Assembly (NCBI GenBank): GCA_000004985.1
Contig: GG738845.1
Origin: Naegleria gruberi
Lineage: Eukaryota
Strand: one strand, 5' to 3'
DNA: 64,000 bases
Shown: positions 6,400 to 57,956 of the stretch, one piece after another
How the letters are laid out: each line of letters starts with the position of its first letter
How positions within the stretch are numbered: position 1 is the stretch's first letter
The notes under the pieces: generated by a model
Database searches by the model: none
Seen by the model: the letters and a program-made list of their open reading frames with translations, nothing else
Told to the model about the DNA's origin: nothing
Position numbers and translations under genes: made by a program

Positions 6400-9300
6400 A
6401 TGAGCAGAAATAAAAATGCGCTCAAGAGAGCAGCGATGAGTGGAATTTCGTTCGAAGAGGATGAAGAGAATCAACAAGACAATACGTTTGAAACAACTTC
6501 CGAACAAAATCTTGAACAAGAAATTAATGATGACTATGAAGAACAATTAAAAGCACAAGAATTATTTTTAAAACAACAAGCTAAACCTTCTGTTCAACAA
6601 GTGAAAAAATCCAAATTTGCCATGGAGAAGGAACAACGAGCATCACAGAATGATGCACCAAAGAATATTCTCCGAATTTTTAATAACACAACTATTGTAG
6701 AGAGAGACATTTCTAAAAGTTCGATCACTTTACCAACAATTCCTAGTCAACCACAACCTTTTCCAACTTTAAAACAACCCACACTAACATTCTTGGGAAG
6801 AAGAAAAAAGCAAGAGGAAAAAACTAAACCATTGGAAAAATCAAAACAAACACTGGCACCAACAATTGAAAAGCCAGTATTGGAAAAAATTGAAAAACTA
6901 AAACATGTTCAAAATGAAAGAGTCTCAGAAGAAGACTCTATTGATAAAGAAAGTGACAAGATGCTTTCTGAAATGTCTAATGAAGAAATACAAGAGGCTC
7001 AAGAACAGATTTTAAAGAATTTTGATTCTTCCCTCATTAACTTGCTCAAAAATAGAGGATTGAAAAAGAAGCAGGCAAAGGAGAAATCTACTTTTAATCC
7101 TAAAGATATCACACCAAAAGAACCAGTTAAAATGTCACAAGAAGAAAAGAAGGAAATTATTGAAAAGGATATTACTGAAATTATTGAAAAAATTAAAGAT
7201 AGTTTGAATCCAAGTGAACTCAAAAATGTAAAAGATGAAGAGGAAAAGCTAAAGTGGATTGTTGGTGGTCAAGAGATTATTGCCGAGTCTGAGGAAGAAA
7301 AAAAGGACAATAGTAGATTCAAGCCTCTTAGATTTGATTTGGAAGGTAACGTAATCGATAAGAACAAAGAATACCACGTCCAATCAGGTCTTTACCATCA
7401 TGGAGGAGATCAATCGGAAGCTGGTTATACTATTCTTGAAATTTTCCAACTTATTAGAAGCAGTGTGATCAATCAGAGAATAATTAATATCAAGCTTCTC
7501 TCTTCAATCATCAAAAAAATTGGCTCAAACAATTCATTTGAACTCATTGAATATTTAGAATCCAAGTATGAATTATTCAAGACGATATTTTGGTTTGGAT
7601 ATGCAGATGCTACAAATGGGAGTCCAACCGTTCTCCACAAAAATCTAAACCTAATTACTGTAACATCAGAGCTCGTTAGAACACTGTTATCTACCCTCTA
7701 CTCGAAACAAGATGAGATAAATCAAATGATTACTCGAGATTCATTTGATTTTGGTTTACATACACTCAATAATTCCATTTCCGAAAAAGTAGACATTATC
7801 AAAAAGTATGAAAAGGATATTACCCAACATGTAATTTCTGACATGGTGTCAATTTTAGAATGTGAGGATGACAATACTTTGTTAGAATGTGTTTTGGATT
7901 GTTTAGCTCTATTTTCAAGGTACTCTTTGACCGTTGCCTCAAAGATAGTTCAGGAAATGCTTAAAAAGTTTGCTTTTAAGGGTTTTAATAGCTCACTTTT
8001 TTACAAATCGCCAAGATTGGCAACAAATTATGCCAAGATGTGTTCTGCACTTGCTTGTCATGGAAAGAATATTTGTGAAAGAATTATTAAGAATACTAAT
8101 ATTATTGATATTTCTAAACAATATTTGACACTTTGTCTTTCAGAACAAAATGAAGAATTGTTAGAATTTTGTAACGAGTTGGTATCATTTATAGTTGCCT
8201 GTACCAGTTACAAGATCGTCAGTGTTATGCATCTATTCTGTCAAGAAATGTTTCCAAATCTTGTTACCATCATCCAGTTAGCCTTTAAGAAGAATCACCA
8301 AGCCATAAGATTGTCAAAACATTGCTTATTTTTGATGCAAGTCTATATGGAATCAAAGTCAGCACTCTCCTTCCCATCCTTTGAAGATAAGGACGAAGTA
8401 GATGAAAATTCTATTGGTCATTTGGAAAATTTCATTTTGGAAGATTGTCCATTATTAGCTGTCAAGGCCCTTAAAAGTGGTATGGAATCTTTGTGTATTA
8501 GATTTCTGTACTTTATTTGCACGTTTTATGATAATTTTTATTGTAATCCAAACAGTGATTTCGCAAGATTTATTTCCAAGGATGATATTGACACAACATC
8601 ACAAATTCTTATGGTAATGAAAAGAGTAGAAAATAGAGTATTTTATCAAGAGATCTATCAGTGGGCTGAATTAATTTTGAATCAATTAGAAAGTTTAGAA
8701 AACTCTGCAGATAACTTTGAAACCATTACCAAATTACTTGCAAACATTACATCTGTTGTAACCATTTGCTATTTTAGTTCCAAGTCATTCAAGCACCTGT
8801 TTGGAGTTTTGTATAATGATATTCATTTCGAGTCGCTATTGTTGAGAATTTACAATTCAGTATTTACCAAGTATTTGTTTACTAAGGAGTTTTATAGCAA
8901 GTCCCTCTTTTCAGAGAATCCTCTCAGATACAAGTACTTTATTCTAAGAGAACGTTTTTTCAATCTGAGCTTTTACTTTTTAAAGTTGTATACATATGAG
9001 AAAACAAGACTCAAGGATTTAATTTCTAGTGATCAGATTTGCAATTTGGCTTTGTTTACCTCTTCCTTACTCGAACCAATCAAATTCAAGGGTGACAGGT
9101 ATCTTTTCTTTTACATTTTACAAACATTTGTATTGAATTATCACCCTACCCTTTTGAATTACTTGGATAAGGATTTGTTTGAAGTTTCACAAAGCGAATC
9201 TGAGAAGGATAATATTATTGAAAGTAACAATATTCAGGTTGGAGCTCCTTTCCATTCACAAGAGTTTGAGCCAACTAGTCCAAGTGATTGGATTTACAAA

Positions 9301-13644: not shown

Positions 13645-15809
13645 ATGAATGAATCCCTAAATTTGAGCAGTATCATAAATGAGGAGTCGATTAATAACTC
13701 TAACAATGAATATCTAAGAAAGAGTTCAGATAGTGAAGAGGATATTTCCAAGACTGTAGAGGAACATTATAATCACATTCATGTTTGCGTACGAGTCTCT
13801 CCTGTACCAGGTATGTAGATTTCTCTAGTATCATTCATGTTTTATTGAATCAAATAGCTGAGGAAGCGAGTGCTAATGCTCAAAATATTGTTGAAATATC
13901 GGATGTAAACAAGTTGATTGCCTATCACCCTGAAAGTAGAGAGGGTTTGCTCTATTCATTTGACAATTGTTTTGATTCAGAAACAACAAACAACACAATC
14001 TTTGAGAGTGTTTGTGTACCAGTATTGAATGCCGTGATTGAGGGTTATAATGGAACTATTATTTCCTATGGATCTTCTCGAACAGGAAAAACTGAAATGA
14101 TGATTGGAAATGAAAGAGAGGAAGGAATTGTTGATTTGACATTCAGAGAAGGCTATTCCTATCTCTCTTCAGTTTCTGACAAGGTGGATTATAGTATTTC
14201 TTTTTCTTTCTGGGAAATGAGTAATGATTCGATTTTGGATTTACTTGATTTGAATGAGGGGAAAGAGCTCAAATTAAAAAGAAGTGGAAAGGAAGGGGTA
14301 TTTATCACAAATCTATCTGAACATCAAGTTGACAGTTGGGAGCATCTTCAATCACTAATTGATAATGGTATAAGAAGAAGCCAACAATTGACTGCTCAAA
14401 GAAAAATTAGGTTGCACTCCTTTATGAGATTAAGGCTCACAAGAAACAATTACGATCACCCAGAAGAGGATGTCTCATCTTCTTTTATGTTTGTAAACTT
14501 GAAGGGTACCGAAAGAATTGGTAAAATTGGAGCAAAGGGAGATCATATGAAGGAAGGAGCAAGTTTAAACATGAGTATGATTGCTTTCGGTAACGCAATT
14601 CACAATGTAGTCAACCACACACGAGTTAAAAAGGATACAGCTATCAATATTAACAGTTTATTTGGAGACTCTCAAGTAACTGCCATGATGAGCGATTCTC
14701 TTGGTGGAAAGAGTGCCACAGTAATTATTGGATCTATTTCTCAAACGGAATTCCACTATCTTGAAACAATGGAAGTTTTGGAAAATCTCAGAATTGCAAG
14801 ACACATCCTCTCAAAACCTGTAAAACAAGTCTTGAACTCTAAAATCAAAAAGCTCTATAATAAGATTAAAAAACTCGAAACAAGCATTCCAGAAGATAAA
14901 CTAGCCCCTGGCCATCCCCCAACTGAACAGCAAGAGGAATTGGAATACTACAAGAGATTATACAGGAAATACCTTGATGGATTGGTAGATGACGAAGATT
15001 TGGACAAACCAATGGAAACAAATCCTTCTCTTCAAGATATTCCTGAATTGGAATTATCAAAAACGGATCAATTATGGAAACAAAATGATGCCAAGAGTCA
15101 GAGACATGGTATTCGTGCCACAGTTTATAAACCCTCATCACTTCAAGGGAAACCAAAGGAAACTTACAAAGGACAATGGAAAGGTCATCAAAAACATGGC
15201 TACGGAGAGGTTGATAATGAAAAGGTAAATTATAAAGGTGGTTGGGCAAATGATAAAAAGCATGGTAAGGGATCCCTATATTCAAAGGAAAAAAACAGAA
15301 GAGTATTTCTGGGAGAATTCCAAAACGATAAGAAGCATGGAAAGGGTGTATTTTATTATGAAAATGGAGAAATTTATGACGGTGAATGGAAGGACGACAA
15401 AAGGTGTGGCTATGGAGTCATGTACTATCTTGATGGAACGAAATATGAAGGAGAATGGGAAAATGATATGAGAGGAGGTAATGGAGCCTGTGTGGAAAAG
15501 AATGGAGATAGATTCGAAGGTTCCTTCCTGAATGGATTGAAGCATGGTCCAGGAGTGTATTACTATATCACACAAGGTCAAAAGTATGTTGGGGAATGGT
15601 TTAAAGGTGTTGCAAAGTGTGGTCAACTATATTCAGATATTGATTATACAGAAGAAGGAATGGACAGTTTTGAGAGCTCAACAAAAATTCCAGAAAATCA
15701 ACTGCAAGATAGAATGAAAGTTATTGAAGATGCAGTCACATCTGTTCGTATTCAAATGCAACAAGAACATTTACTCCCTTCTGCAATAAGAGAAAATATT
15801 TACGAGTGA
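13645..15809 (+). CDS. Divergent kinesin-like motor domain fused to about seven C-terminal MORN repeats. Two exons, 13645..13810 and 13858..15809.
   Basis: Exon 1 ends ..IHVCVRVSPVP, a kinesin N-terminal motif. The P-loop GSSRTGKT is retained, but switch II is NLKGTE rather than DLAGSE. The C-terminus has repeated Y.G.W..D.KHG.G units (MORN). Confidence 0.6.
13811..13857 (+). other. Spliceosomal intron (kinesin-MORN gene), 47 nt
   Basis: cctgtaccag|GTATGTAGATTTCTCTAG...TTGAATCAAATAG|ctgaggaagcg. It is phase 1 and joins the short exon 1 to the ORF-track ORF 13785..15809. Confidence 0.6.
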
Positions 15810-41507: not shown

Positions 41508-43829
41508 AATGCTCTCATCAAAGTCTTCTGTTGCATCCATCAATTTGATGGATTGTCAAAAAGGTACGTCTGATAATCTAAATGATCGGAAATTGTTAAT
41601 CATATAAAAGAGAGTATTTTAAACATGTTAAATATTGAAGGCTACGATGCCATTACTAATACATCAAGTAAAAAGAAAAAGAAGAAAGCCAGTGGATCCA
41701 ATGATCATGTTCTTACGGGTCATGAATTAGGACATCAATTAACAGAACGAAAAGTACAACAGTGGAAAGTTTTAATTATGGATAAACATTGTTCAGAAAT
41801 TATTACTCCATTGTTCAAAGTTGGAGATTTGAGAGCAATGGGAGTGACTTTAATGTTGTAAGTTATTTTGTTGTGATTTGTGGATAATTGATTTAGACCT
41901 TTAGAAGAGAAGAGACAACCAATTGCAGATGCACCGGCCATTTATTTTGTTCAACCAACTCAACATAATATCGATCGCATTTGTAGTGATTGTGAAAGGG
42001 AGCTCTATGCCTCCTGTCATATTAATTTTTGCCATAGTAATTATAAAAGAGATATTTTGGAAAAGATGGCCACCAAATTGGTTCAAACTGAATCAACACA
42101 TTTACTTTCAAAAGTTTTGGATCAATTTGTTAATTATATTTGCCTAGAGAAGGATTTTTTCTCCTTACTAGGTTTGGATAATTGTTTATTACAACTTCAT
42201 GATCCAACCAAGAAGGAAGAGGAAATTAAATTAATTGTGGATCAAATAGCAAACGGAATTGCATCAGTTATTTTGTCTTCATCAAATGGAAAGAATAATA
42301 CCTCTGGAGGATTTGTAATGCCAATTATTGTCTGCCCCTCAGCTCAAGGAAAACCAGCCAGATTTATTGCCGAAGCTGTTGAAAAAACTCTGAGGAATTT
42401 GGCCCAATCACCTCTTCAAGAAAATCAAAAGAATGAAACAAGTGTTGATAAAAAGAAGAATAGGCCACTATTGATAATTATGGACAGAACAGTTGATTTT
42501 ACAGTTTGCTTACAACACCAATGGACATACCGTTCTATGATTCATGACATTTTCCAAATGAAATCCAATCAAGTTAAGGTTCCAATCAGAAAGAAGGTTT
42601 CTGAAAATTCATCCCCAGAACAGACCTATGAGATTGCTTTGGATGATGAATTTTGGATTGAAAATGCTACCAAACCATTCCAAGAAGTAGCTCAAAATGT
42701 AACAAACTATTTGGAAAAGCACAAAGCAAAATTGAACGAGTTTAACAAAAAATATGGATTAAATATGAGTGAGGAAGATGTTATGAAGTCATCATCAAGC
42801 ACTGAAGATTCTGGACTCAATAAGAATACTGTTGATGAAGTATTTGTCATGTCACAAGAAAGAACCAGAGTTGACATGCACACCAATATTGCCTATGCTA
42901 TCCTTCATGAGGTAAACAAGAGAAAATTAGATGAATTTGTTGCAATCGAAGAGGCTCTTATCACCAAACAATCAAAGATTGAATCCGCAGTCTTACACTC
43001 CCTGTTGAATGTTTCAGAGGAGGGTGAGCAAGAAAAAGGTACTTTGGAAGACAAGTTGAGACTCATTCTTGTATGCTATCTCTACATTATTCAACAAGAA
43101 AGATTAAACCAGGATCCTCAATTCATAACTCGCCAGGAATTAGAAAAATACGCACTTACCCTTCAACAACGAAGATTGAGCCAGGAAGGTCAAGAATTCA
43201 AGGGTGCAACAAATTTATCCCTTGAAAATATTTTACCTGAAATTGCATTCTTGAAACAAATGACACGACACATCAGTATGACAAGAGGTACTAATGAATC
43301 ATCACTCAGACACAATTCTTCTCTTGCCAATTTGACTAAAAAGTTTTCAATTTTGGGGGATCAAATTAAGAGTATTGCGTCAGGTCTCAATGAATATTAT
43401 GGTGAGGGATCAGAGTATAGAACTACCCTTCCTCTCACTAGAATTGTTGATGCCATAGTGAATAATACACCAAGAAAACTCTCAGAACATGAGGAGTTTG
43501 TATTTATTGATCCAAAACTCCCACCTTCCCAATCACTAATCAAAACTTATTCTAAATCTTCTCCTGAAACAAATACCAATACTACTCCTGGTATGAGAAT
43601 GGATGAAATTGGCCAATCTTCCCACAATGTATCAAATAATTCACAAGATGGATTCAGTGATGTGATTACCTTTGTTGTTGGTGGTGGTAATTATATGGAA
43701 TATTCAAATCTCCTCCAACACTTTATTGCCAAGAGTGGTACTTCCATTAATGTTACCTATGGATCTACAAATGTTTTGACTGGTGGACAATTTTTAAATG
43801 AAATTAGAGCCTTAGGGAGTAATAAATAA
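41508..43829 (+). CDS. SLY1: Sec1/Munc18-family protein SLY1 (SCFD1). Three exons, 41508..41562, 41611..41857 and 41897..43829.
   Basis: The spliced N-terminus is MLSSKSSVASINLMDCQK|ESILNMLNIEGYDA...ERKVQQWKVLIMDKHCSEIITPLFKVGDLRAMGVTLML|PLEEKRQPIADAPAIYFVQPTQHNIDRICSDCERELYASCHINFC... It is collinear with yeast Sly1 (..LRDMQISAILKMLFLN...IIWKVLILDIKSTATISSVLRVNDLLKAGITVHSLIKQDRSPLPDVPAIYFVSPTKENID..). Confidence 0.8.
41563..41610 (+). other. Spliceosomal intron 1 (SLY1), 48 nt
   Basis: tgtcaaaaag|GTACGTCTGATAATC...ATCATATAAAAG|agagtatttta. Phase 1. Confidence 0.7.
41858..41896 (+). other. Spliceosomal intron 2 (SLY1), 39 nt
   Basis: ctttaatgtt|GTAAGTTATTTTGTTGTGATTTGTGGATAATTGATTTAG|acctttagaag. 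Phase 2. Reconstitutes ..TLML|PLEEKRQPIADAPAIYFV. Confidence 0.7.
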
Positions 43830-43882: not shown

Positions 43883-46800
43883 TTACAATCTTGGTTGACG
43901 AAGAGGAATTTCAGTATTTGGAAGTATGGACTTGTCTGTCTTTGGAGTTGTCTTTCTATATTGTTGCAATTCACCAACAAACTCGAACAACTTATCAATT
44001 TCATTATATGGTGGTAAGAGGGAAACAACAGACTCAGATTTTGGTGCATCCTTTGCTCCCTTCTTTGAAGTTGATTTTTCGACCTTGACAGTTGTTTGGA
44101 GAATACCCATCTTGTCAAAAATAGCAACAGTGTTGGAAAGAGTCTCAGATGAACATGCTTCATAGAAATGAACTTTTTGATCAAAGTAGAGTTTTTCAAT
44201 AAACCATTGCATTCTTTCAACAAGAGCCTTCTTTCTAAGTGTTGGAATTTCTTGTTCATTACCTGAGAATGGCAATGAAATAAGTGCCATGGAAGCTCCC
44301 CAATAGGCTTCAATGAAAGGCCACAATAATGAGCAAATAAATTTGAGATTTTCCAAATACAAGACTGGAATGAATACCTTTTCATCTTTGAGTTGGAAAA
44401 TACCTCTCTTTGACATGGCATTAATGACGCTCATGAAGTCATCATGTTCCTCAGGTCTTTCCTTATAAATGAATTCAAGAGAGAGAAGCTCATTCAAAAA
44501 TTCACATCTCTTTAACAATTCAGAAAGAGGAACGCCTTGGTCAATCATTAATTTTTCTCTGAATGAGTAGAATGAGCATGAGACAATACTTTCAACAAAG
44601 AATAGGTGAATAATTTGATTTCTATAATAGCTGAGTTCCAAAATCTTCTTATAGTCTGACTTGACTTCAATAGCTGGTTCTAACATGTTCTTATTCTTCT
44701 TGATAATATTATTGATCAATCCAAGAGCTCTGTTCACTACTGATGCTGTAGTTTGTGTCTTGGACCAGTAAACATTTCCTCCTCTTGAAATAATTTGATT
44801 CTTTAACCAATCGGTCTTGCTTTGTAATTCTTCCATACTAATACCTTCTCTATAGGTTAATAAAATTGTAGAAACGAGAGCAATAGGCATAATGACGACA
44901 GATTGATTCAAATCATAGGTAATCTTGGTACCAAGATTTTTAACAAGGGTATTCTTGTCATCATCTTGACCGAATGGATCGAATGAAGGAGATTCTGATT
45001 TCATATTTTCAACATAGTCCTTCAATGAAATTGGTTCAGCAATTTTGACATGAATGTCGCCATACTTTCTCAACAAGACAGAACTTGCAGAGATGAGAGC
45101 AGAGAGAGATTCTCCCTTCTTATTTCCTCCTAACAATTCTCTAGTATGTGATTCACTTTCAATAACCTTTTCATAACCAATATGAATAGGTACAAGTGTG
45201 AGGTTATCGACACGCTTGTCTAAATAAGTATCAGCAATGGTTTTCAAAAGTCCAAGTTTCGGTCTGAGAGTTTTGCCACCTCTTGAACGAGTACCTTCAA
45301 CAAAGAATTCAACAGGATTACCATCAACGAGTAAACGTTGAACATATTCAGAAAAGATGGCCTTATATACCTTGTCAGAACCGAAAGATCTTCTCATAAA
45401 GAAAGCACCCGAGTATCTGAATAAATCACGAACTAAAAACATGTTTAAAAAGTCTTCTCCAGCAGCAATGTGTGGAACTGGAACACCATATACAAAGAAA
45501 ACATAGGAAACAATTAAGAAATCAATATAACTTCTGTGAGTTGGAATGAATACAAGAGTTCCTGATTCTGCCTTTTTAGAAATTTCTTTCAATTTTTCAA
45601 TTTCATTTGTGTCGACCATAATAGATTGATACATTCTACGCCAAATCTTTCTTAAAATCCAACCAAATGCTCTAATTGCATTATTATTTGGGTCAGCAAA
45701 CATTTGGTCCATAATTTGGAGAGCTCTCTTTTCAACATTCATAACAGAAATGTTGAGAGTTTCAGCTTCAGATAATATGGCATCTTGTACAATTTTTGAT
45801 TGTAAAACTGTTTGTTTGACTTGTTCTCGGGTTTGACCATCAGTGAAACGGCCTGCAGCTGTAAATGCCAATTCTACATCATTATAGAGATTGTTAATGA
45901 AATTATACTCATTGGACTTGATCAAGTCAGTGGTGGTTGGTGGTTCAGGATTTTCCTTTAAAACAAACTTGTGGAGACCATAACAGAAATATTGGAAATA
46001 GGTGGACCAATTAATAAGACTCCAATCAAGAGTAAACAAGTCCTTTTCATTTTCTGGTAATCTGTGGAAAGCAGAATCCAAATTGGCAACATCAAAGAAC
46101 CATTCATTGAGGGTAAAGTGATGGAAATTTGAGGAGAGATTGGATTGACGGGAGGCCATCTTTTTAAATCCTTCTACAGCTTTAACTGCAGCCTTGCTTC
46201 CAAAAATAGTGGCAATCAACCCATATAATTGAATCATCCAAGTGTATCTCATCAAGTATTGTGTCTTGTAGAAGAATCTATTTGTAATCATATTAAATTC
46301 AGCTCTTGAAACACTCTTATCAGGTTGGTGAGTGTGCCAATATCCTAAAAAAAGTTAATAGAATAAGAATATATAAACTTACTGAGTGTTCCTGTGACAG
46401 TATCTTGCCATCTGCCTGGATTAGATGTGGAAGTACCACAATGGTAAACTCTCAAACTTGATTTTCTTGTTGCAATATCAGCTGGACAAATAATCATGGC
46501 ATTGGAAACAAAATCAACTGGAACTTGATCTGATACAACCTTAGTGTTACCAGGAAGCAAGTGAATAATACCAAGACCACTAAACAAGTAAACAGAACCA
46601 CCTGCAGATACAGCATCAATCCAACCAGGAACAGGATCTCTCAATGCAGCACCCACAATGGTTGGTCTCAAAATTGCAACATTGACATCTCCCTTATATT
46701 TGGCAACAAGTGCTTCACCAATTCTCTTAGTGATGGTATAGGTATTTGGATAACCTGTAAAGGCCAATGCCTTTACAGTTGCCTTTTCAATTTCTTTTGG

Positions 46801-47547
46801 TGATAATTTTCTAATTCTTTCACAAAATGCTTCAATATCTTCACCACCTGGTAATTTAAGAGGATAGAATTTTTCATCAACTCTACTTCCTGATTTCATA
46901 TTTGAGTTTGTATAGGCAGTTGAGATGTGAGTAAATGCTTCAATATTGTGACATTGTTTAGCAAAGTTCAAACATCTCAAAGGACCATAAGCATTCAAAT
47001 TAATGGCATAGTCCAATCTTTCCGTAAATCCGATAGTTGCAGCACTGTGAATAATAACTTGAATTTCTTTTTTCAATTGTTCAATCTTATCTAAGGTAGA
47101 TCCTACAAAGATATTTTCTTCTGTAACATCTCCAAATACTCCTTCAACTTTCTCTCTTGCAAATACTTCAAAATCTTCACGTTTTCCATTAAATCTTTCC
47201 CTTATTATTCTATCCATAATGGGTGATCTCAAAATTTCTGTAATCAATCTTTCTTCTGGTGGAATTACTTTTCCAGTCTTTCTATCCTTTTTTTCACGTA
47301 CTAACAAGTATAATTTCCTAATATTTGGAAGACATCTCAAAAACTTTTCAACAACAACCTTTCCTAAAAATCCTGTACAGCCAGTACAGAAAACAGTCTT
47401 GTTATTATAATATTCAGTTAAAGATAATGGAGCTGAAGAAGTGTAATCATCATGATGGGTTGAATTCAACAAATCGGAATAGGTATAAAAAGTATAATCA
47501 TCAGTATGACCTTGTTTTTTAGAAAAGGAAGCAAAGTATGAATTCAT
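43883..47547 (-). CDS. Bifunctional fusion of an N-terminal fatty acyl-CoA reductase (FAR) and a C-terminal glycerone-phosphate/glycerol-3-phosphate O-acyltransferase (GNPAT/DHAPAT-like), FARAT-type. Two exons, 47547..46383 and 46344..43883.
   Basis: Exon 1 carries the FAR NAD-binding motif ..KTVFCTGCTGFLGKVVVEKFLR..ISTAYTN... Exon 2 carries acyltransferase motifs ..LVFIPTHRSYIDFLIVSY.. (HxxxxD), ..GAFFMRRSFG.. and ..FFVEGTRSRGGK... A 38-nt GTAAGT..TTTTTAG intron joins the ORF-track ORFs 46345..47592 and 43883..46291 in frame (..TVTGTL|R|YWHTHQPDKSVSRAEFNMITNRFFYK..). Confidence 0.7.
46345..46382 (-). other. Spliceosomal intron joining the FAR and GNPAT halves, 38 nt
   Basis: Minus-strand GGAACACTCA|GTAAGTTTATATATTCTTATTCTATTAACTTTTTTTAG|GATATTGGCACACTC. 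Phase 1. The FAR ORF stop codon (TAG) lies inside the intron. Confidence 0.65.
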
Positions 47548-48139
47548 TGTTATCTTGATATTCTCTGAATCGGAGTTTAAATTTGAACACAATGTTGATG
47601 CAGTGTGTGAAAATATTTAACAACTTGATTATGTCCACAAGCAACAATAACGGGTTGTGAAGATAATATTTATGAACGACGATATGATTTTATGGACGGA
47701 AAATAATATTTGGTCCGAAACACACACTCAGTAAATTGTTGAGGTAATTTTTTTATGTTAATAATATGATGAAGATTCTAAAATGATTTTCTCAACTGCG
47801 AGAATAAAAGAAAGGAAAAAGAAAACCACCTCATCAGTTATTCTCTTTTACAAAATTCAAAATAGATGGCATACTTTAATTGGAAAGTAATATTTTGTAA
47901 ATTGCCTTCAATTTTTTTACTTGTTTACAAAAATAAAGAATGGTCCATGTTGATGAAATAACCAAAGCCCTTTCTTCCCATTGCAGAAACACCATTATCA
48001 AAACAGGTACCGTACTACTAGTCAGTAAAATACAGCTGAACATTCATTCACAACCAAACTATTGCGAAGATTGTTACTGTTACACAATACCGCCATAACA
48101 ACAACATTAAAAAAAACAAATCTCTCCAAAGAGCTTAAA

Positions 48140-51100
48140 ATGCTTGATGAGGTTTCTTCATCAGAAACCTACCAACCACTTCATGTCATGACGAGATTAA
48201 GGCCATCAACAATACCCTCCAACTCCCATACATCATCTAATAATCCATCATCACCATTAACTCCTTCTACTAGTAATCCTCTTGAAACGGGTGCACGACG
48301 TCCAACGTTTTTTGGCGATATTGCTAAAAGTGCCCTTTCAACTCCAACAACCACACAAGCTGGAAAATTAAACATTATTGGAGCTCTCCTTTCTCATGAT
48401 ACATTGGATAGTGATAACAATTCAGATTCTTCGTCCCGATCTTCATCACCCATTCCTGTCAGATTAAGGAAGGATAATGCAGCTAATTTAACTAGGAGAA
48501 GAAGGAAAACTGATGCTCCACTTCCAGTTCCCATTTCATCTTCTCCACCAACAGCGTCCTCTCCCACAACAATTAATACATCAACAAATAATGAGGCATT
48601 TGGCTCCAACCTCCTTAATTTTGCAGAGTCACAAGAGGAAACCAAACGTCTAGTTGCATCCTTACAAAGAACTGAGGATATATCAATAACTTTGGATGAT
48701 TCGGCAAGTACTGTAAATGTGAATAATATGATTTATGTAAAAATGGATTATGCAAAAACTCAAGTAGAGGAAATTATGAACAAGTTCTCAAATGCCAAGC
48801 AAGAATTCAAAGAAAAGACTAAGAAACTTCAAAAACATTTCGAAAAACAAGACAATGAAAAGATGGCCAAGATTCAGAGTTTCATGGAGGAATTCAATGA
48901 CAAATATATATCCATGCAAAAAAGATACCAAGAAACACTCTTAAAAAAGTATAAGGAAAAAATTGAAGAATTGGGTGGAAAAGTTAAAGCATATGCATCT
49001 GAAAAGGATGATCTAAGAGACCGACTTGTGTCAGAAACAACAAAGTATTACGAGGACATGAGAGTACACGTTTCTAGTTTTGAGAAAATTATTTCTGGAA
49101 TAGAGGCAAAGGAGAAGAAGCGATCAGATGAATACATTTTAGAACAACGTGCAGTTTGCAACAAACAAATTGAAGGAGCTCAAGCACAATTGACAAAATC
49201 CATAAGTGTACAAAAAAAGTTATTCTTTGGATTAGTCAATTATATAAGGAAAAAAGAGAAGGAATGTTTGAAACTAGGAAATGATTTGGATGAAAGCAAA
49301 TTAAATGCTGCAAATCTAAAACAACAATGTGAAAAACTACAATCATGTATCAAAGAAGGAGAAAATAGAGAAAAAGACTATCAAGTTATTGTAAATAAGC
49401 AAAAAGACAAAATAATTGAATTGGGAAAACGATTGGATTTTTATATATCCAAAACATTTTCCGATTCAAATGTAAATACTGACTTAACAATACGAGATTT
49501 GGAAAATCAAGAAATGAAATCATCAAACAAAACGAAAGAAAATGAAAAAATCAGGAAACATGCTAAAAATCAAGCAGATACTATTAAGGGACTAGAGAAT
49601 CAGAAAACCTCTTTGGAAGATAACATCCAAAAATTATCGAGTGCTATTTCTAATTTCCAACAAGAAATTGAATCTTTAAAGATGAAAATAGAAAAGGAAA
49701 TGGAAGCCAATAATTCTTTGCAGGAAACTAGAAAGCAATTAGAGGTAAAGATAACGGAGCTAACGAGAAAGGACGCTTTAACGAAGGATATTTTGAAAAA
49801 TCAAAAACAAAAAATATCAACCTTGGAGACTCAGTTAACTTCTTCTGTACCAGCTCAAGATGCAAATAATATTTTGGACAGTTTAAGGAAAGATGTGCAA
49901 ACTGAAAGAGAGGAAAAACAACACCTTCAAACTTTGATTATTGAGAAGGAATCACTTATTAGTTCGATAGAAACAAAATATGGCGATGCGGTAAGCAAGT
50001 ACAGAGATTTGGATCTAAAATTCCATAAGATGGAGGAGGAATTCATGAGTCAAGTAAAGAACCTCAAGGAAGAAGCCAAAAACAAGCTTGGAAGTTTGAT
50101 TCCTACCATTATAGAAAAAGTTGTTCCTCCTGAACAAAAAATTACATTGGCTCATAGTTCACAAACAGAGGAAGTTTTTATTGAGCAGAAAGAGTTAGAT
50201 GATTTTAAAAGCAAAGTACAGCTTTTGGAAAAGGATTTACAAGACTCAAACCTTCAAATTACTGACCTCAATAATAATATTGCTCAAATAACGAGAGAGT
50301 TTGCAATGAAAGAATCAACATTAATTTTCGAGGCAAAGGAGAGGGAAAACCAACTAACTTTGGAATACAAAGAAAGAGAATCAAAATTAATTTCGAATTT
50401 TAAGGAAAATGAACACAGAATTAAAACTCAATTCAGCGAAAAGGAAATGGTTCTAATTTCCCAGTTTACTGAAAGGGAGCAAAAACTAAATTCAGAATTT
50501 AAGGAAACTCAACAAAGAATGCAGAGTGAATTTGAGGAATCCCAACAAAGAATACAGGCCTCGTTTAATGACACTCAACAAAGAATGCAGGACTCATTTA
50601 ATGAAAGAGAAACTAAACTAGAAACAGAATTTACACAAGCAAAAACGCTTTTGGAAGGTGATAATGAATTGTTAAAAAATGAAGTGGCAAGTTTAAACAA
50701 CTCTATTTGCGAAAAAACAGCTCTAATATCACAATTAGAGAGACAACTTTCACTTTCACAAACAGAGCTGGATGGATATCAAAAGTTTGGCAGTGAAACC
50801 ATAGATTTTGAAAAAAAGGAGATGGTTATTAGGCATTTCAATTCACTAAAGAGAGAGTTAGAAATACTGAAAGCAGAAATAGAATTGAGGAAATCTGTCG
50901 AAGAGGAATTAAGAGAGGAGATTGAACGGTTGAAAAAGGATGTAGGTTTAACAAACGGAAAATACAGAAATCTGCTCAATCAATCCCATTTTAGGCGCTT
51001 GGAGAATAATACAGGTACAGTCAGTTTTGAGGAAGAGATGGACCGTCTAACTGTTGAAAACAAGCAAATAACTGAGACAAACAAACTTCTTGAACTTCAA

Positions 51101-51484
51101 ATAGCAAGTTTCTCCAAGGACGTTTATTTTGAAGAGAGCCAAAAGTTTCAACAATTATATTTGGCTGAGAGAGAAAAAACGAACAAACTGTCAGCTCAAT
51201 GTAAACAGTTTGTACTAAAAATTACAGAGCAAGAGCAATACATAGAAAGTTTGAGTTCAAAATGTGAAAGAGCTTTTGATGACATTGCAAGAGAGAGACA
51301 ACGAACTGAAGTAGCCCTCAGATTAGTAAAAAAAGGACATAAGGAAAAGGAGGAATTTTTGATTGAAATAGAAAACCTGAAACATCAGTTCGAAGTTGCT
51401 CTTGATGTTTTAAGGAGAAATCAATTTGAACAAGAGTTTTATAGAATGCTAAAGAAGAGCACTTTAATTAAAGGAATCTTGTAA
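48140..51484 (+). CDS. Large coiled-coil protein (about 1114 aa) with internal tandem repeats of about 20 aa
   Basis: ATG at 48140 (gagcttaaaATG). The N-terminal 170 aa are Ser/Pro/Thr-rich. The rest is heptad-rich with E/K/Q. Tandem units (FxE.EQ(K/R)(L/M)(N/Q)SEF.E(T/S)QQR) lie at about 50380-50640. The last 21 nt overlap the convergent AAA-ATPase CDS. Confidence 0.5.
50380..50640 (+). repeat. In-frame tandem coding repeats (units of about 20 aa) inside the coiled-coil gene
   Basis: Protein-level repeats ..[81 protein letters not shown].., with matching nucleotide repeats (caacaaagaatgcag appears three times). Confidence 0.55.
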
Positions 51485-54400
51485 TGATTCGTAGCGTTCT
51501 AGGTCAACAGCTGAAACAGAAGGAGTAATATTATTGAATGCCTTTTCAAAATCATCTTGACATACAACAATTTGGTGTGATTGCTTATTGGAAATGTCAC
51601 CCTCACTAGTTTCCCTGCTTACAGCATTCATAAAAGCGTCTGTGCAAATAGCATAAAAATCGGCTCCTGTTAGATTAAATTCTCTGTTTTGTAGAAGTAT
51701 TTTCAAGTTTACATCATTTGCAAGGTTGAATTTTCTTGTGAGAGCATGTAAAACTTTGAGTTGACCTTCATGTGTCTTTGAAACTCCCAAATAAACTAAT
51801 CTCTCAAATCTTCCCGGTCTTAAAAGAGCGGGATCAATCAAATCTGGTCTATTGGTTGCACCAATCACGAAAACTCCCTTATTAGATGTAGAATCCTTCT
51901 CATCATCTGAGGCATTAGAAATATCATCCAATTCAGCCAACAATTGGGAAACGACTCTATCACTAACACCTCCAGAATCGCCACTAGCACCTCTATTTGG
52001 TGCAAGAGCATCTAATTCATCGAAGAATATAACACATGGTTTTGCTTGGCGTGCTCTTTCGAATACAAGTCTAACATTTCTTTCACTTTCACCAACATAC
52101 GCATTAATTAACTCGGGTCCTTTAACACTCATGAAATTCAATTGACATTCAGTTGCTACTGCTTTTGCAAGAAGAGTCTTACCACAGCCTGGTGGACCAT
52201 ACCTTTGTACCATATTGATATAAAATTGTGAAATAAAAATTATTACTTACAATAAGACACCACTTCTTGTTTTGAGATTTGAGTGGGATTGGAGAGGTGA
52301 TTGAATGATATCAAGAATTTCCTGTTTTGCATGTTCTAAACCACCAATATCTTGCCATTTTACAGTTGGGATAGATAAGTTGGTTGTACTACCTGCATCC
52401 TTGCCTGCTACGGCATATTTTTTTAACCATTTCATTCCTCCATTCACAAAATGTTTGTGAGATAGGGTGGATGTGTAAACTAAAGATGAAACTTTTGATT
52501 GTTGTTGGTACTTGTTGACATGTTGAAGCGATTCTATTATGGCTTGTGTCTTGGAGATTTGAACGATATTGTTCAGGTCATGCACAGAGCATCCACTGGT
52601 TTGTTTAACAATCTGTGAGGTTGACAAATCAATATTACAAATTGATTTGATATCAGTAGTATTCTTTCTAAAGAATAAATCTCTCTCCTCTTCACTCAAG
52701 TTTCTTCTAAATTCAATCTTGGTTAGGAATATATTTCTGAATACTGGACTTAGCAAATCTAAGGATGAAACACTTGGAATGAATATCATAGGGTAAGGAT
52801 TATTCTTTGATTTGAGAGATTGTTTGAGACATTTAACAATTCTAATCTTGGAATGTTGCTTGATGTTGGTACCTCCATTATTATTGTTGCTCAATTGATC
52901 AAAGGCTTGGAAGTGCTTAATGTAGAGTACACAAGGAGTACATTGTTTGGCAAGTGTAAAACATTGAGCAAGATTTTGGGCTGTAATGGCATCTGATTCA
53001 TTGATAATTTCAAAAGCATTAATTTCTATAAGATGGAATCCATACTTGGTACAAATAGAATGAACAGCATGAGTTTTTCCTGAGCCCTCCTCGCCATAAA
53101 TTAAAAAGTGTTGTTGAACTAGATTCTTTTGGCTTGATCTATTTGGCTGTTTGTGAATGGAAATGATTGGCTCGATGGCTTTGCAAAGTTTTTTGAAACC
53201 ACTCACTTGATTTTCATAGTCCTCATTGATATCTGATGGTATGTATCCCCTTACAGGTTGGGCATTGGTAATGACAGCAGTTTCTGTATTATCAATGATG
53301 AGTGTTTCATCTGAATCAACACCCAATTCGAGTGTATCAACTCTATAACCAGTATAGTCTCCATGAATTGGATCCAATCTTTTGCTTGCTTCCAATTGTG
53401 CCAAAACTTGAATCTGAACTGACTCCTCAGATTTAATAAAATCAATATTTGGATTCTCCACTAACACAATATCATTCTTACGTAATGCTCTCTTATGATT
53501 TGTAAAAAAGATTTCTAATTGTTTCTCGAAAAGTTGTTGTTCCAGTTTTTGTTCTTCCTCTGTTCCTTCTGTAAGTGTATTTCCGAAATGATTTGGACTT
53601 TGTATTGGTGTGAGAACAATTTTAGAAGCTACCTTTGGAGCATTTTGGTTGGACATTATTTGAATACGTGTTGGCTTGCCGAGATTAAAGTACAATGATT
53701 TAGTCAATATTATATCATCCTCAACACCATGAATGACACAAATTAAAGAACTGTGTGTATTATTCAACTTCACCCAACTATTATCAAAGCAATTGAGAGA
53801 GGCAAATAGTTTGGAACTCAGTAATACCATGGAGAGTGGATCTGCAGACAAGATTTGCTCTATGTTTTCATTGACACATTTTTCAAGATAACCACGGAAG
53901 GTTTCTGTAGTAACCGATTTGATATTTGTGGTTGAAATTGTGATTTGATTTTTCATTGCTATAAAATCAGAAGATAACATTTCTTCTAGGGAATCATTTC
54001 CCAATAATTCCATTTCAATATTTGATAAATTATAGATACGATCTGGCACACTTGCACCAGGTGTATTGAATAGAATGACCTTGGTCTTTTCATCAATTAA
54101 TCCTTGTCGAGTTGGAGTTGTATCAACAATTTGAAACAACAATTTTCCTTCATCAATAATACTAAAAGTATGAAACCTGGTCAATAATGTTGATATTTGT
54201 TTTTTGGTAAAATGTAAAAATTCATATTCATTCTCTGAAATCCAATCTTGTACATTGTTATCATTTTCTGAAATAATTGCTTGCACAATAATTTGCTCCA
54301 AAATAGGAATATTAGATTTTTCAATAATTTGAATATCAATAGATATAACAAATCCCTCCTCAACTACATGATCCAATAGATTTTCCAAATAATCATTTCC

Positions 54401-54619
54401 AACCAAAAATTCTATTATTTTGTTGTTATCACTATTTGTTGGCTTGTTATTCATTATTGTTAGTAATGTTTGCTCGGAAACAAGAGCTTCTGTCATGAAA
54501 GTCTCATTCACTAACAAGTACACTGATTTATCACTGCTACTACTAACAGTATTATTCATTGACTTTTCCACCAATTTATGACAATTCAGGTGGGAGACTT
54601 TCTCTAGGGTTGCTTTCAT
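51464..54619 (-). CDS. Type-II AAA+ ATPase, Pex6-like (Pex1/Pex6 family). Two exons, 54619..52251 and 52202..51464.
   Basis: D1 has Walker A GEEGSGKT but a degenerate Walker B. D2 is canonical: ..RSGVLL|[18 protein letters not shown].. (Walker A split by an intron), [10 protein letters not shown] (Walker B), ..[20 protein letters not shown].. (SRH/arginine fingers). There is a long N-terminal non-ATPase region. Adjacent to the ether-lipid FAR-GNPAT gene. Confidence 0.5.
52203..52250 (-). other. Spliceosomal intron (AAA ATPase gene), 48 nt
   Basis: Minus-strand GGTGTCTTATT|GTAAGTAATAATTTTTATTTCACAATTTTATATCAATATGGTACAAAG|GTATGGTCCACCAGGCTGTGGTAAGACT. Phase 2. It joins ORFs 52247..54619 and 51464..52213. 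Confidence 0.65.
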
Positions 54620-55443: not shown

Positions 55444-57058
55444 TTAATGGTGTTGCTGTATTGAGGCTTGAACCTTTTTTTGTAAATTTTGATAATAGTC
55501 ATCTATTCGTTCTAGTTTGGTATTTAATGAAGTAATAACTTCCATATCCTCCATCAGAATAATTGCTTTCTCGATATTAACAGAATTCCTCAAATAAATA
55601 GGTGCCAACCTAGCATGTTCAGAAATTGCGAGATCCACAAAAGGGACAGTAAATAAGGGGACATAAGGGAAAAAGGGAGTTTTAGCAGCCTTGGTGATAA
55701 TTGTAGATAAATTCCAAATCTCATCTATTTGAGTGTTGTCTATGGTTACCATAAGAGCAAGTTTCAACCCATTATGAAGAATGTCAATAAAAGTTGAAAT
55801 GAGTTGAACTACTGGATGTTGTGGATTATCGTGCTCAGGACATAGCTTTTTTTGAGTAAATGGCCTTAGAATTGCATCCAATACATTAAATACATCATTA
55901 ATTTTTGTCTTATCCATTGACATTTCCAAAAATCCCATATTCCTTATATCAAACCCCATACATGTCTTGATAACATTGGGAAAATTTTGTACAATACTTA
56001 TTGGTCCGTTCTTTTCAGCAGCCAGAAGAAACTCAAGACTTGCTCTGAGATTAATGTCCCACTTGACTAAATTTTTCATCTCAGGGGTGGATGGGTTATT
56101 TCTAGACTCGTACTCAATAACCTCACTTACAAAATATCTTACAATATCTAAATACATAGATTGTTCCTTATACTTCCTCCTTCCTTGGCAAACAAACGAC
56201 AAATTCAACAATGCCATACCAGCATATGTATTGGTAAAACAGTCCATGTAGGGTGCCAATAAAAGTTTTGCGTGCTGAAAACAAATTTCTGCATACTCTT
56301 TTGAACCTAGGCGCAGCTCTCTCCATGCTTGTAACGAAAATACAACAGCCTTAAAATCATTCCCAGCCTCATCCAAGTTCTCAATCAAATGCCCAAACAA
56401 ACCTTTTGGGATTATCTCATACATTCTTTAGAGAATTAGTTTTGAATATTTCAAAGATTACTTACTGGAGTGAATAAAACCCAAGAATGTTTTTCTTATT
56501 TGCGTGAATTGCATTAGATGTATCATTAATAGTTGGATTTTGAATAGAGACAACTGGGGGATCAGATATTGTTTTACCTCCATTCTTTCTTTCATATTCA
56601 CATTTAATTCCTCTCTTTGAGCAATTAGAGCAGGAAGGAAGATTTCTAGTGCATTTACGATGATTTCTTCTACAGTATTTGCATGAAATTGAACTGAATG
56701 TTTGCTCCTCAAATCTAATTTCCTTAACATATGGTTTGAAATGTAAATCCTTATTTTGACTATTTACACCCGAACCCGAACCATTACTATTACTTTCCTG
56801 TTGCTGATGAAGATTATTTTGATGACTTGTTGAGCAGTTTGGATTTGTATCTAAATGGCCAGTTGTGATGATGGGATGATGGTGCGCAAAAGACAAATCG
56901 CCACTACTAGTATTCGTCACGAATGTATTATGATGATGGATGTTATTGTTGCCATTATTCCCAACCACACTATGATTACCACTACTACTGGTCAATAACG
57001 ACAGAAAATCCAACAACCCAATGTTGTGCTGGCCGTTTTGATGTTGATGAGGAAACAT
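55444..57058 (-). CDS. Zn(II)2Cys6 binuclear-cluster (GAL4-type) transcription factor. Two exons, 57058 (or 57115)..56466 and 56425..55444.
   Basis: N-terminal exon: ..CKYCRRNHRKCTRNLPSCSNCSKRGIKCEY has C-x2-C-x6-C-x6-C-x2-C-x6-C spacing. A 40-nt GTAAGT..CTAAAG intron joins it in frame to ORF 55444..56424 (..GFYSL|Q|MYEIIPKG..). The N-terminus is His/Asn/Gln-rich. Three in-frame ATGs are possible (57115, 57094-ish, 57058), and the one at 57058 is in the best A-rich context. Confidence 0.55.
56426..56465 (-). other. Spliceosomal intron (Zn2Cys6 gene), 40 nt
   Basis: Minus-strand TTCACTCCA|GTAAGTAATCTTTGAAATATTCAAAACTAATTCTCTAAAG|AATGTATGAG. Phase 2. The upstream ORF stop TAA is inside the intron. 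Confidence 0.55.
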
Positions 57059-57956
57059 TTTTTTGTTGCTGAATAACAGTTCTTGAAAAAGCATCTGGCC
57101 ATACTTAAAATACATTCAAAAACCCCTAAACGAGATAAGGAACAACTCAAATTTTATCTCCTCCAATAAACTCGTAACAGGATTGGCCGTTTCAAATCTC
57201 ATCATTGAGGAGAAACTCGAATCCTAATTGATATTTAAGGTTTCAGCTTCATTACCTCATATCTGTGGTAAGGTTCTAGACGCATTTTTGCAATGCTCCC
57301 AAAAAACATGGAATGCTCCCAAAGCTGATTTACCTGTAGGGGTAATTGGATGTGCCAATAACACCGATTTCATTCCTTAAGCAAATTCACTCAACTTCAA
57401 CAAAGCATATCTCAATAACAACACCATATGTTAGAGAAACATGCCGAATTGTCATTATTCATTATGTTAACAATCATAATATCAAGTTTGTTACAGATTT
57501 GGCTCTTTACTTATCGAGAAAAGTGATTTCAAAATTTTCATATGTGGTAGTAAGACGAGCATGTTTTCTCGGTTAATACAAATAGTTTATATTCAAGAAA
57601 ACAGTATCTTGTAGAATACATCAATTAGAACATGAATAATAAAAAATATTTCTATTTCACTAAGTATTAAATTAAATATTTCCTTTTTTGTAAGGAGCAT
57701 GGGAAACTTTTCCACAGATATCAAAAGGGTTATCCAATTTGAAGGGTAGATATATTTTAACTCCAGGAACAAATAGTAATAATCATGAAGATTTATCAAA
57801 CAGTCCATCGCAAATCCTTAAATATTGAATCCATATTTTAAAGAAAAGAATTAATGATTGAATGTTTTTGTTTAACCTAAAATAATAATATCAGGTAAGA
57901 ATTATCATTTATAGAATTATATGGTGATATTGAACTTTTTTAGTGGTATGTGTTAT

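Follow-up and report, generated by a model that had tools for sequence, protein, structure and literature searches.

Gene structure at the locus

The window analysed here is a stretch of 64,000 nucleotides (nt) of contig GG738845.1 from Naegleria gruberi (assembly GCA_000004985.1), with a G+C content of 33.5%. On its minus strand, at 43883..47547, lies what is very probably the gene for FARAT, a protein in which a fatty acyl-CoA reductase (FAR) is fused to an acyltransferase of the dihydroxyacetone phosphate (DHAP)/glycerol-3-phosphate type. Its gene structure, domains and motif conservation, its identity to a public gene model and the conservation of its intron were determined here directly, and are described before the function that is proposed for it.

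An earlier note on this DNA had suggested that two minus-strand open reading frames (ORFs) are linked by splicing, and both ORFs (46345..47592, of 415 amino acids (aa), and 43883..46291, of 802 aa) are present in the ORF list exactly as it described them. The DNA between them reads, on the minus strand, GGAACACTCA, GTAAGTTTATATATTCTTATTCTATTAACTTTTTTTAG and GATATTGG in succession, and the canonical 38-nt intron of that proposal (GTAAGT...TTTTTAG) is indeed found at 46345..46382. When kept, this intron holds the in-frame stop codon that closes the apparent FAR-only ORF; its removal drops the stop, and the reading frame continues into the acyltransferase as the note had claimed. Joining 47547..46383 to 46344..43883 gives a 3627-nt coding sequence with no internal stop codons and a predicted product of 1208 aa, made up as follows.

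46383..47547 (-): FARAT exon 1, from the ATG at 47547, encoding aa 1-388 and the first base of codon R389
46345..46382 (-): predicted spliceosomal intron of 38 nt, phase 1, GTAAGT...TTTTTAG
43883..46344 (-): FARAT exon 2, encoding aa 389-1208, followed by the stop codon at 43883..43885

The ATG at 47547 is the earliest in the ORF, and the N-terminal extension that it provides is similar in length to that of an orthologue from Willaertia magna. The R389 codon is split by the intron as a/ga, and the predicted spliced junction reads ...GGAACACTCA joined to GATATTGGCAC... (46383 to 46344). Of the 14 GT..AG excisions near this junction that keep the reading frame and leave it free of stop codons, the 38-nt excision gives the best alignment to the Willaertia orthologue (a score of 211 versus 164 for the runner-up); the other splice pairs, which match that orthologue more poorly, were rejected. 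The junction is without a gap in an alignment of nine sequences (Naegleria, Willaertia, a metagenomic relative, Percolomonas, Planoprotostelium, Phytophthora, Thecamonas and others), and the neighbouring residue Y390 is invariant. The Willaertia gene takes 3644 nt for 1198 codons and has a single 47-nt intron (GTAAGT...AATAG), which is likewise in phase 1 and interrupts the same Arg codon behind its first base (L/RYWH). In the metagenomic relative (P0003, 51% identity), the contig of which also encodes profilin, the fusion is one uninterrupted, intronless ORF of 3612 nt. Short GTAAGT introns are normal here, since a Pex6-like gene in the window has a similar one of 48 nt. These comparisons very strongly indicate that the locus would give one FARAT protein through splicing of the 38-nt intron.

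Domains and catalytic motifs

The predicted protein matches four Pfam domains, arranged from N- to C-terminus as listed below.

46495..47385 (-): NAD_binding_4 (PF07993), the FAR catalytic Rossmann domain, aa 55-351, E value 2.8e-53
45953..46243 (-): Sterile (PF03015), the FAR C-terminal domain, aa 423-519, E value 1.5e-16
45179..45574 (-): Acyltransferase (PF01553), catalytic domain, aa 646-777, E value 9.9e-22
44093..45142 (-): GPAT_C (PF19277), the GPAT/GNPAT C-terminal region, aa 790-1139, E value 2.2e-76

The Sterile match, at 60.8 bits with a Pfam cut-off of 35.4, is encoded in the downstream ORF, 3' of the intron, and because of this position the FAR is incomplete without splicing. By these E values, and by the alignment score of the 38-nt excision, the feature is far beyond chance, and sequence is sufficient to assign the four domains unambiguously.

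All of the motifs quoted in the earlier note (GCTGFLGK, HxxxxD in the form HRSYID, FFMRRSF, FVEGTRSRGGK and the terminal LRQPRL) are found in the protein. The FAR half has the nucleotide-binding motif TGCTGFLGK and a YxxxK motif (Y270-x3-K274), and the residues T55, G56, T58, G59, F60, K63, Y270 and K274 are invariant in the nine-sequence alignment. The acyltransferase half contains motif I (H658-RSYI-D663, HxxxxD), motif II (GAFFMRR), motif III (FFVEGTRSRGGK) and motif IV (VPIHIGYE), with invariant residues in the same alignment at H658 and D663 (motif I), G701 and F704 (motif II), F735, E738, G739, R741, S742, R743, G745 and K746 (motif III), and P774 and E780 (motif IV). Each half also matches solved structures: the FAR half matches a FAR (7eoz_A, E value 9.8e-45), and the acyltransferase half matches glycerol-3-phosphate acyltransferases (GPATs), namely 9vuq_E (3.3e-54) and human GPAT1 (8e4y_A, 5.9e-53, 183 bits). 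The modules by which a FARAT is recognized are thus present, with an N-terminal FAR composed of NAD_binding_4 and Sterile and a C-terminal acyltransferase carrying motifs I-IV and GPAT_C, and at the level of the gene model both are on one polypeptide.

Database relatives and the existing gene model

In a BLASTP comparison, the public record XP_002683520.1 / EFC50776.1 ('predicted protein, partial [Naegleria gruberi]', 1145 aa) is identical at 1145 of 1145 positions to residues 43-1187 of our model. This identity places the window in N. gruberi, and as it spans the junction (...VTGTL/RYWHTHQ...), the 38-nt intron was already used in the public model, which comes from a 1.56-Mb scaffold and is a member of the 100%-identity cluster P0002. 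The record describes the same gene with the same intron as ours, without the first 42 and the last 21 residues, and because those last 21 residues are absent, database-wide screens of it for a peroxisomal targeting signal 1 (PTS1) would miss the C-terminal -PRL. The gene had thus been annotated already and its enzyme class is known, and an N. gruberi FARAT has been reported before; what is new here is small, and consists of both ends of the gene in full, with the -PRL tail that the NCBI model lacks.

Among the many matches from a search of a large protein collection are homologues of 1100-1250 aa that are colinear with the whole protein and carry all four domains, from Willaertia, Percolomonas, Planoprotostelium, Phytophthora, Paramecium and Thecamonas. 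The BLASTP and profile check that the earlier note had proposed for the fused protein consequently came out in its favour, with matches to PF07993 and PF01553 and with full-length homologues in the same order. Its central proposal, of a FAR joined to a DHAP/glycerol-3-phosphate-type acyltransferase in a protein of about 1200 aa, is borne out by the position of the Sterile domain, the identity to XP_002683520.1, the Willaertia intron and the intronless P0003. The best full-length orthologue is that of Willaertia magna (KAL9644790.1, 1198 aa), with 66% identity over 99% coverage, and the C-terminal tails of the two proteins are colinear (...LQPKL in Willaertia, ...LRQPRL in Naegleria).

When the acyltransferase half was used as the query, the nearest named animal matches were GNPAT or 'dihydroxyacetone phosphate acyltransferase' proteins (275-282 bits); the metazoan GNPAT matches have 30-33% identity over 80-99% coverage, and mitochondrial GPAT (GPAM) is not among the best 120 matches listed for this half. 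No FARAT orthologue from N. fowleri or N. lovaniensis is among the matches listed in two protein searches, which could reflect either gene loss or incomplete coverage by the database or its prefilter; an N. lovaniensis protein of the same acyltransferase family, a stand-alone paralogue, is among those matches.

The C-terminal tripeptide and a stand-alone paralogue

The protein ends in a tripeptide that is a candidate peroxisomal signal.

43886..43894 (-): C-terminal tripeptide -PRL, putative non-canonical PTS1

The homologues in the nine-sequence alignment end in -PKL, -SKL, -AKL and -SRM, which are PTS1-like, and in -ANL. In Arabidopsis, glycolate oxidase 1 (GO1) and HBCDH have -PRL as their PTS1 (PMC3355810). 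The C-terminus that the earlier note had suggested inspecting for such a signal thus ends in a documented minor PTS1, which may be a weak one: the -PRL of Histoplasma CatP targets mNeonGreen to peroxisomes only partially (PMC13343957). No PTS2 (RLx5HL-like) was seen in the N-terminal 45 residues when these were read by eye. In the PTS1-like tripeptides of the Naegleria (-PRL) and Willaertia (-PKL) FARATs, position -3 is in both cases occupied by Pro, which is unusual.

There are also stand-alone acyltransferases of the GNPAT/GPAT family without a FAR module in N. lovaniensis (P0213, 771 aa) and in Willaertia magna (P0197, 717 aa). These have 33-35% identity to the acyltransferase half of FARAT and end in the canonical -SKL, and may represent a second peroxisomal acyltransferase. 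It is possible, but unlikely, that the shared Pro and this paralogue reflect a sharing of tasks that has not been described in other organisms with FARAT, in which FARAT is either imported in part, and thus both cytosolic and peroxisomal, or serves mainly to supply fatty alcohol, with the -SKL paralogue as the principal peroxisomal DHAP acyltransferase.

Neighbouring genes and other observations in the window

The genes that flank FARAT, given here for context, are as follows.

42057..43829 (+): Sec1/Munc18-family ORF, downstream of FARAT and convergent with it
48062..51484 (+): ORF with no Pfam match, between FARAT and the Pex6-like gene
51464..54619 (-): Pex6-like double-AAA ATPase, 1035 aa after splicing; not part of FARAT
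52203..52250 (-): intron of the Pex6-like gene, 48 nt, GTAAGT...AAAG; its splicing restores the Walker A context

The Pex6-like AAA ATPase that the earlier note had placed about 4 kb away is a real gene. Pfam finds the AAA domain twice in its product, weakly for D1 (E value 2.9e-13) and strongly for D2 (2e-45), and aa 350-1034 match residues 317-1027 of yeast PEX6 (8c0v_B) in a single colinear stretch (3.6e-100). Chains of p97/Cdc48 have a higher total score, but in two stretches, the best of which covers no more of the query than its D2 region, and no chain named PEX1 is among the best 60 matches listed. As predicted from its sequence, the protein has the characters of PEX6, being a type II AAA+ ATPase with a degenerate D1, a canonical D2 and an overall match to PEX6. 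A functional clustering of FARAT and Pex6 was considered and rejected, given that the ORF at 48062..51484 intervenes and that the adjacency is not conserved in Willaertia, where neither an AAA (Pex6) nor a Sec1 gene lies within 6 kb of FARAT; the proximity of the two genes is probably coincidental and without functional meaning. The Pfam match of the Sec1/Munc18 ORF starts at profile position 91 of 575, and since it begins there, the gene probably has at least one further exon upstream, coding for some 90 residues of the N-terminus.

The metagenomic heterolobosean-like contig L002 carries a short-chain dehydrogenase/reductase (SDR; adh_short) gene at 7982..8989 (+), which lies two genes downstream of its intronless FARAT. 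Acyl/alkyl-DHAP reductases belong to the SDRs, and the gene was considered as a candidate for that function and set aside: the C-terminus of its product, -FAL, is no clear PTS1, and nothing further ties it to the pathway. Elsewhere in the window, an ORF at 56462..57115 (-) encodes a 'fungal' Zn(2)-Cys(6) binuclear cluster DNA-binding domain (PF00172, E value 2.4e-08) in what is a heterolobosean genome, and an ORF at 13785..15809 (+) has a kinesin motor domain followed by MORN repeats at the C-terminus, an unusual pairing. The remaining window ORFs that were scanned are ordinary eukaryotic housekeeping genes.

Discussion

We consider it highly probable that 43883..47547 (-) is the N. gruberi FARAT gene, with two exons, a 38-nt phase-1 intron and a 1208-aa bifunctional product that feeds ether-lipid synthesis. 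The two activities, DHAP as the acceptor and the peroxisomal location are assigned by analogy with the Tetrahymena and Dictyostelium orthologues. On this analogy, the FAR module (the NAD(P)H-binding Rossmann domain and the Sterile domain) would reduce acyl-CoA to fatty alcohol, and the GNPAT-type module (the HxxxxD domain and GPAT_C) would acylate DHAP to acyl-DHAP. Fatty alcohol and acyl-DHAP would then meet as the substrates of alkyl-DHAP synthase (AGPS), and because both products are AGPS substrates, FARAT would supply both precursors of the first ether bond. The -PRL tripeptide would most likely act as a PTS1 that brings the soluble protein into the peroxisome lumen via PEX5.

Several points weigh against this assignment. 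The support for the splice is comparative evidence together with the existing gene model, and the choice between DHAP and glycerol-3-phosphate as acceptor is beyond what sequence alone can establish. Among the NCBIfam models the acyltransferase half is nearest to bacterial PlsB, far under the cut-off. The import conferred by -PRL in Histoplasma is partial, and the stand-alone -SKL enzyme could share or take over the role of peroxisomal DHAP acyltransferase. Neither AGPS nor PEDS1 was found in Pfam scans of 30 window ORFs, and the presence of AGPS in the N. gruberi genome rests on a published survey (PMC13012113). The -SKL paralogue in particular should be weighed when the DHAP acyltransferase function is assigned in Heterolobosea.

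As each of the two pieces is a long ORF by itself, and a prokaryote-style gene caller has derived from an ENA contig a 789-aa stand-alone product (P0002), one could read the locus as two separate, unspliced genes, with the FAR stopping within 46345..46382 and the acyltransferase beginning at its own ATG (MITNRFF at 46291, or MASRQSN). The Sterile domain, however, would then be cut from the FAR catalytic domain and attached to the acyltransferase; in every homologue the segment from the junction to MITNRFF (RYWHTHQPDKSVSRAEFN) is retained and aligns colinearly; the position and phase of the intron are kept in Willaertia; and the intronless relative P0003 reads straight through. On these four grounds we reject the two-gene reading, against which the use of the 38-nt splice in the public N. 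gruberi model also counts, and regard it as almost certainly wrong. A different role for the intron would be its regulated retention, yielding a second functional product in the form of a 403-aa truncated FAR catalytic domain ending ...GTLSKFIYSYSINFF. Very short introns are often retained in protists, and the in-frame stop here is immediate, after 14 extra codons; but the truncated product would be without the Sterile domain that is present in all FARs, and in Willaertia the corresponding product would stop after 2 extra codons, such that no alternative tail is conserved, and we find this very improbable.

The fusion could also be real and its acyltransferase mainly a GPAT acting on glycerol-3-phosphate, or the protein could be non-peroxisomal, in which case it would not feed ether-lipid synthesis as the FARATs of Dictyostelium and Tetrahymena do. 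The Pfam and NCBIfam models that were matched are of the GPAT/PlsB type, the solved structures are GPATs, the Histoplasma -PRL is imported only in part (PMC13343957), and both N. lovaniensis and Willaertia have the canonical -SKL stand-alone paralogue, all of which would fit such a reading. It is set against the observations that the nearest named metazoan relatives among the matches listed are GNPAT/DHAPAT rather than GPAM, that the aligned orthologues end in PTS1-like tripeptides, and that fusion to a FAR which forms fatty alcohol is metabolically sensible only upstream of AGPS. The characterised orthologues, moreover, serve peroxisomal ether-lipid synthesis (PMC7375469, PMC13012113), and AGPS and PEDS1 are both reported for N. 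gruberi (PMC13012113). A mainly GPAT or non-peroxisomal protein is therefore improbable, and we retain the assignment to a FARAT that feeds ether-lipid synthesis.

The importance of these findings is modest and is mainly a matter of annotation hygiene. The complete 1208-aa model restores the N-terminus and the C-terminal -PRL, a likely peroxisomal signal, and the position of a single intron conserved between Naegleria and Willaertia is a useful by-product.

Comparison with known FARAT systems

A 2026 survey of the evolution of the plasmalogen pathway names N. gruberi as encoding FARAT, AGPS and PEDS1 and describes the fused enzyme from Amoebozoa, Discoba, Filasterea and ciliates as well as from a few fungi. 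It makes the case that the fusion is ancestral in eukaryotes and that separate genes are a holozoan exception (PMC13012113). The statement in the earlier note that the fusion was described in Dictyostelium and not widely elsewhere is thus outdated, in that, by the survey's account of these systems, the Tetrahymena enzyme was characterised first and many lineages have the fusion (PMC13012113). Nor does the fusion have the bearing on taxonomy that was attributed to it, since it carries little taxonomic information, and N. gruberi belongs to the Heterolobosea rather than to the dictyostelids.

The source study for the FARAT of Tetrahymena thermophila (TtFARAT) is reportedly Dittrich-Domergue et al. 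2014 (J Biol Chem 289:21984). According to what the survey relates of it, this ciliate enzyme has been shown experimentally to be bifunctional (PMC13012113), and it has the same FAR-GNPAT fusion as the Naegleria protein in about 1140 aa, a comparison made second-hand through that survey. The FARAT of Dictyostelium discoideum (fatA, DDB0305750) likewise combines an N-terminal FAR with a C-terminal acyltransferase in a soluble protein with a C-terminal PTS1; it resides in the lumen of peroxisomes, and ether lipids are lost when it is knocked out (PMC7375469). It differs in that it ends in the canonical -SKL and contains poly-Asn blocks (PMC7375469), whereas -PRL is the end of the Naegleria protein, in which poly-Asn blocks are absent. 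The Dictyostelium enzyme is not among the matches listed in our searches, where the nearest amoebozoan is that of Planoprotostelium, at 37% identity.

The closest likeness is with the Willaertia magna protein (KAL9644790.1), which has the same four domains, an intron in the same codon and phase, and the Pro at -3 (-PKL), but differs in the length of that intron (47 nt, versus 38 nt in Naegleria) and in its neighbouring genes. The metazoan enzymes GNPAT (DHAPAT) and FAR1/FAR2 have the same chemistries and the same Pfam domains, but are encoded by two separate genes; one of the metazoan GNPATs listed ends in a PTS1, -AKL. Animal FAR1 sits at the peroxisomal membrane, on the side facing the cytosol, whereas FARAT is one protein within the lumen (PMC13012113).

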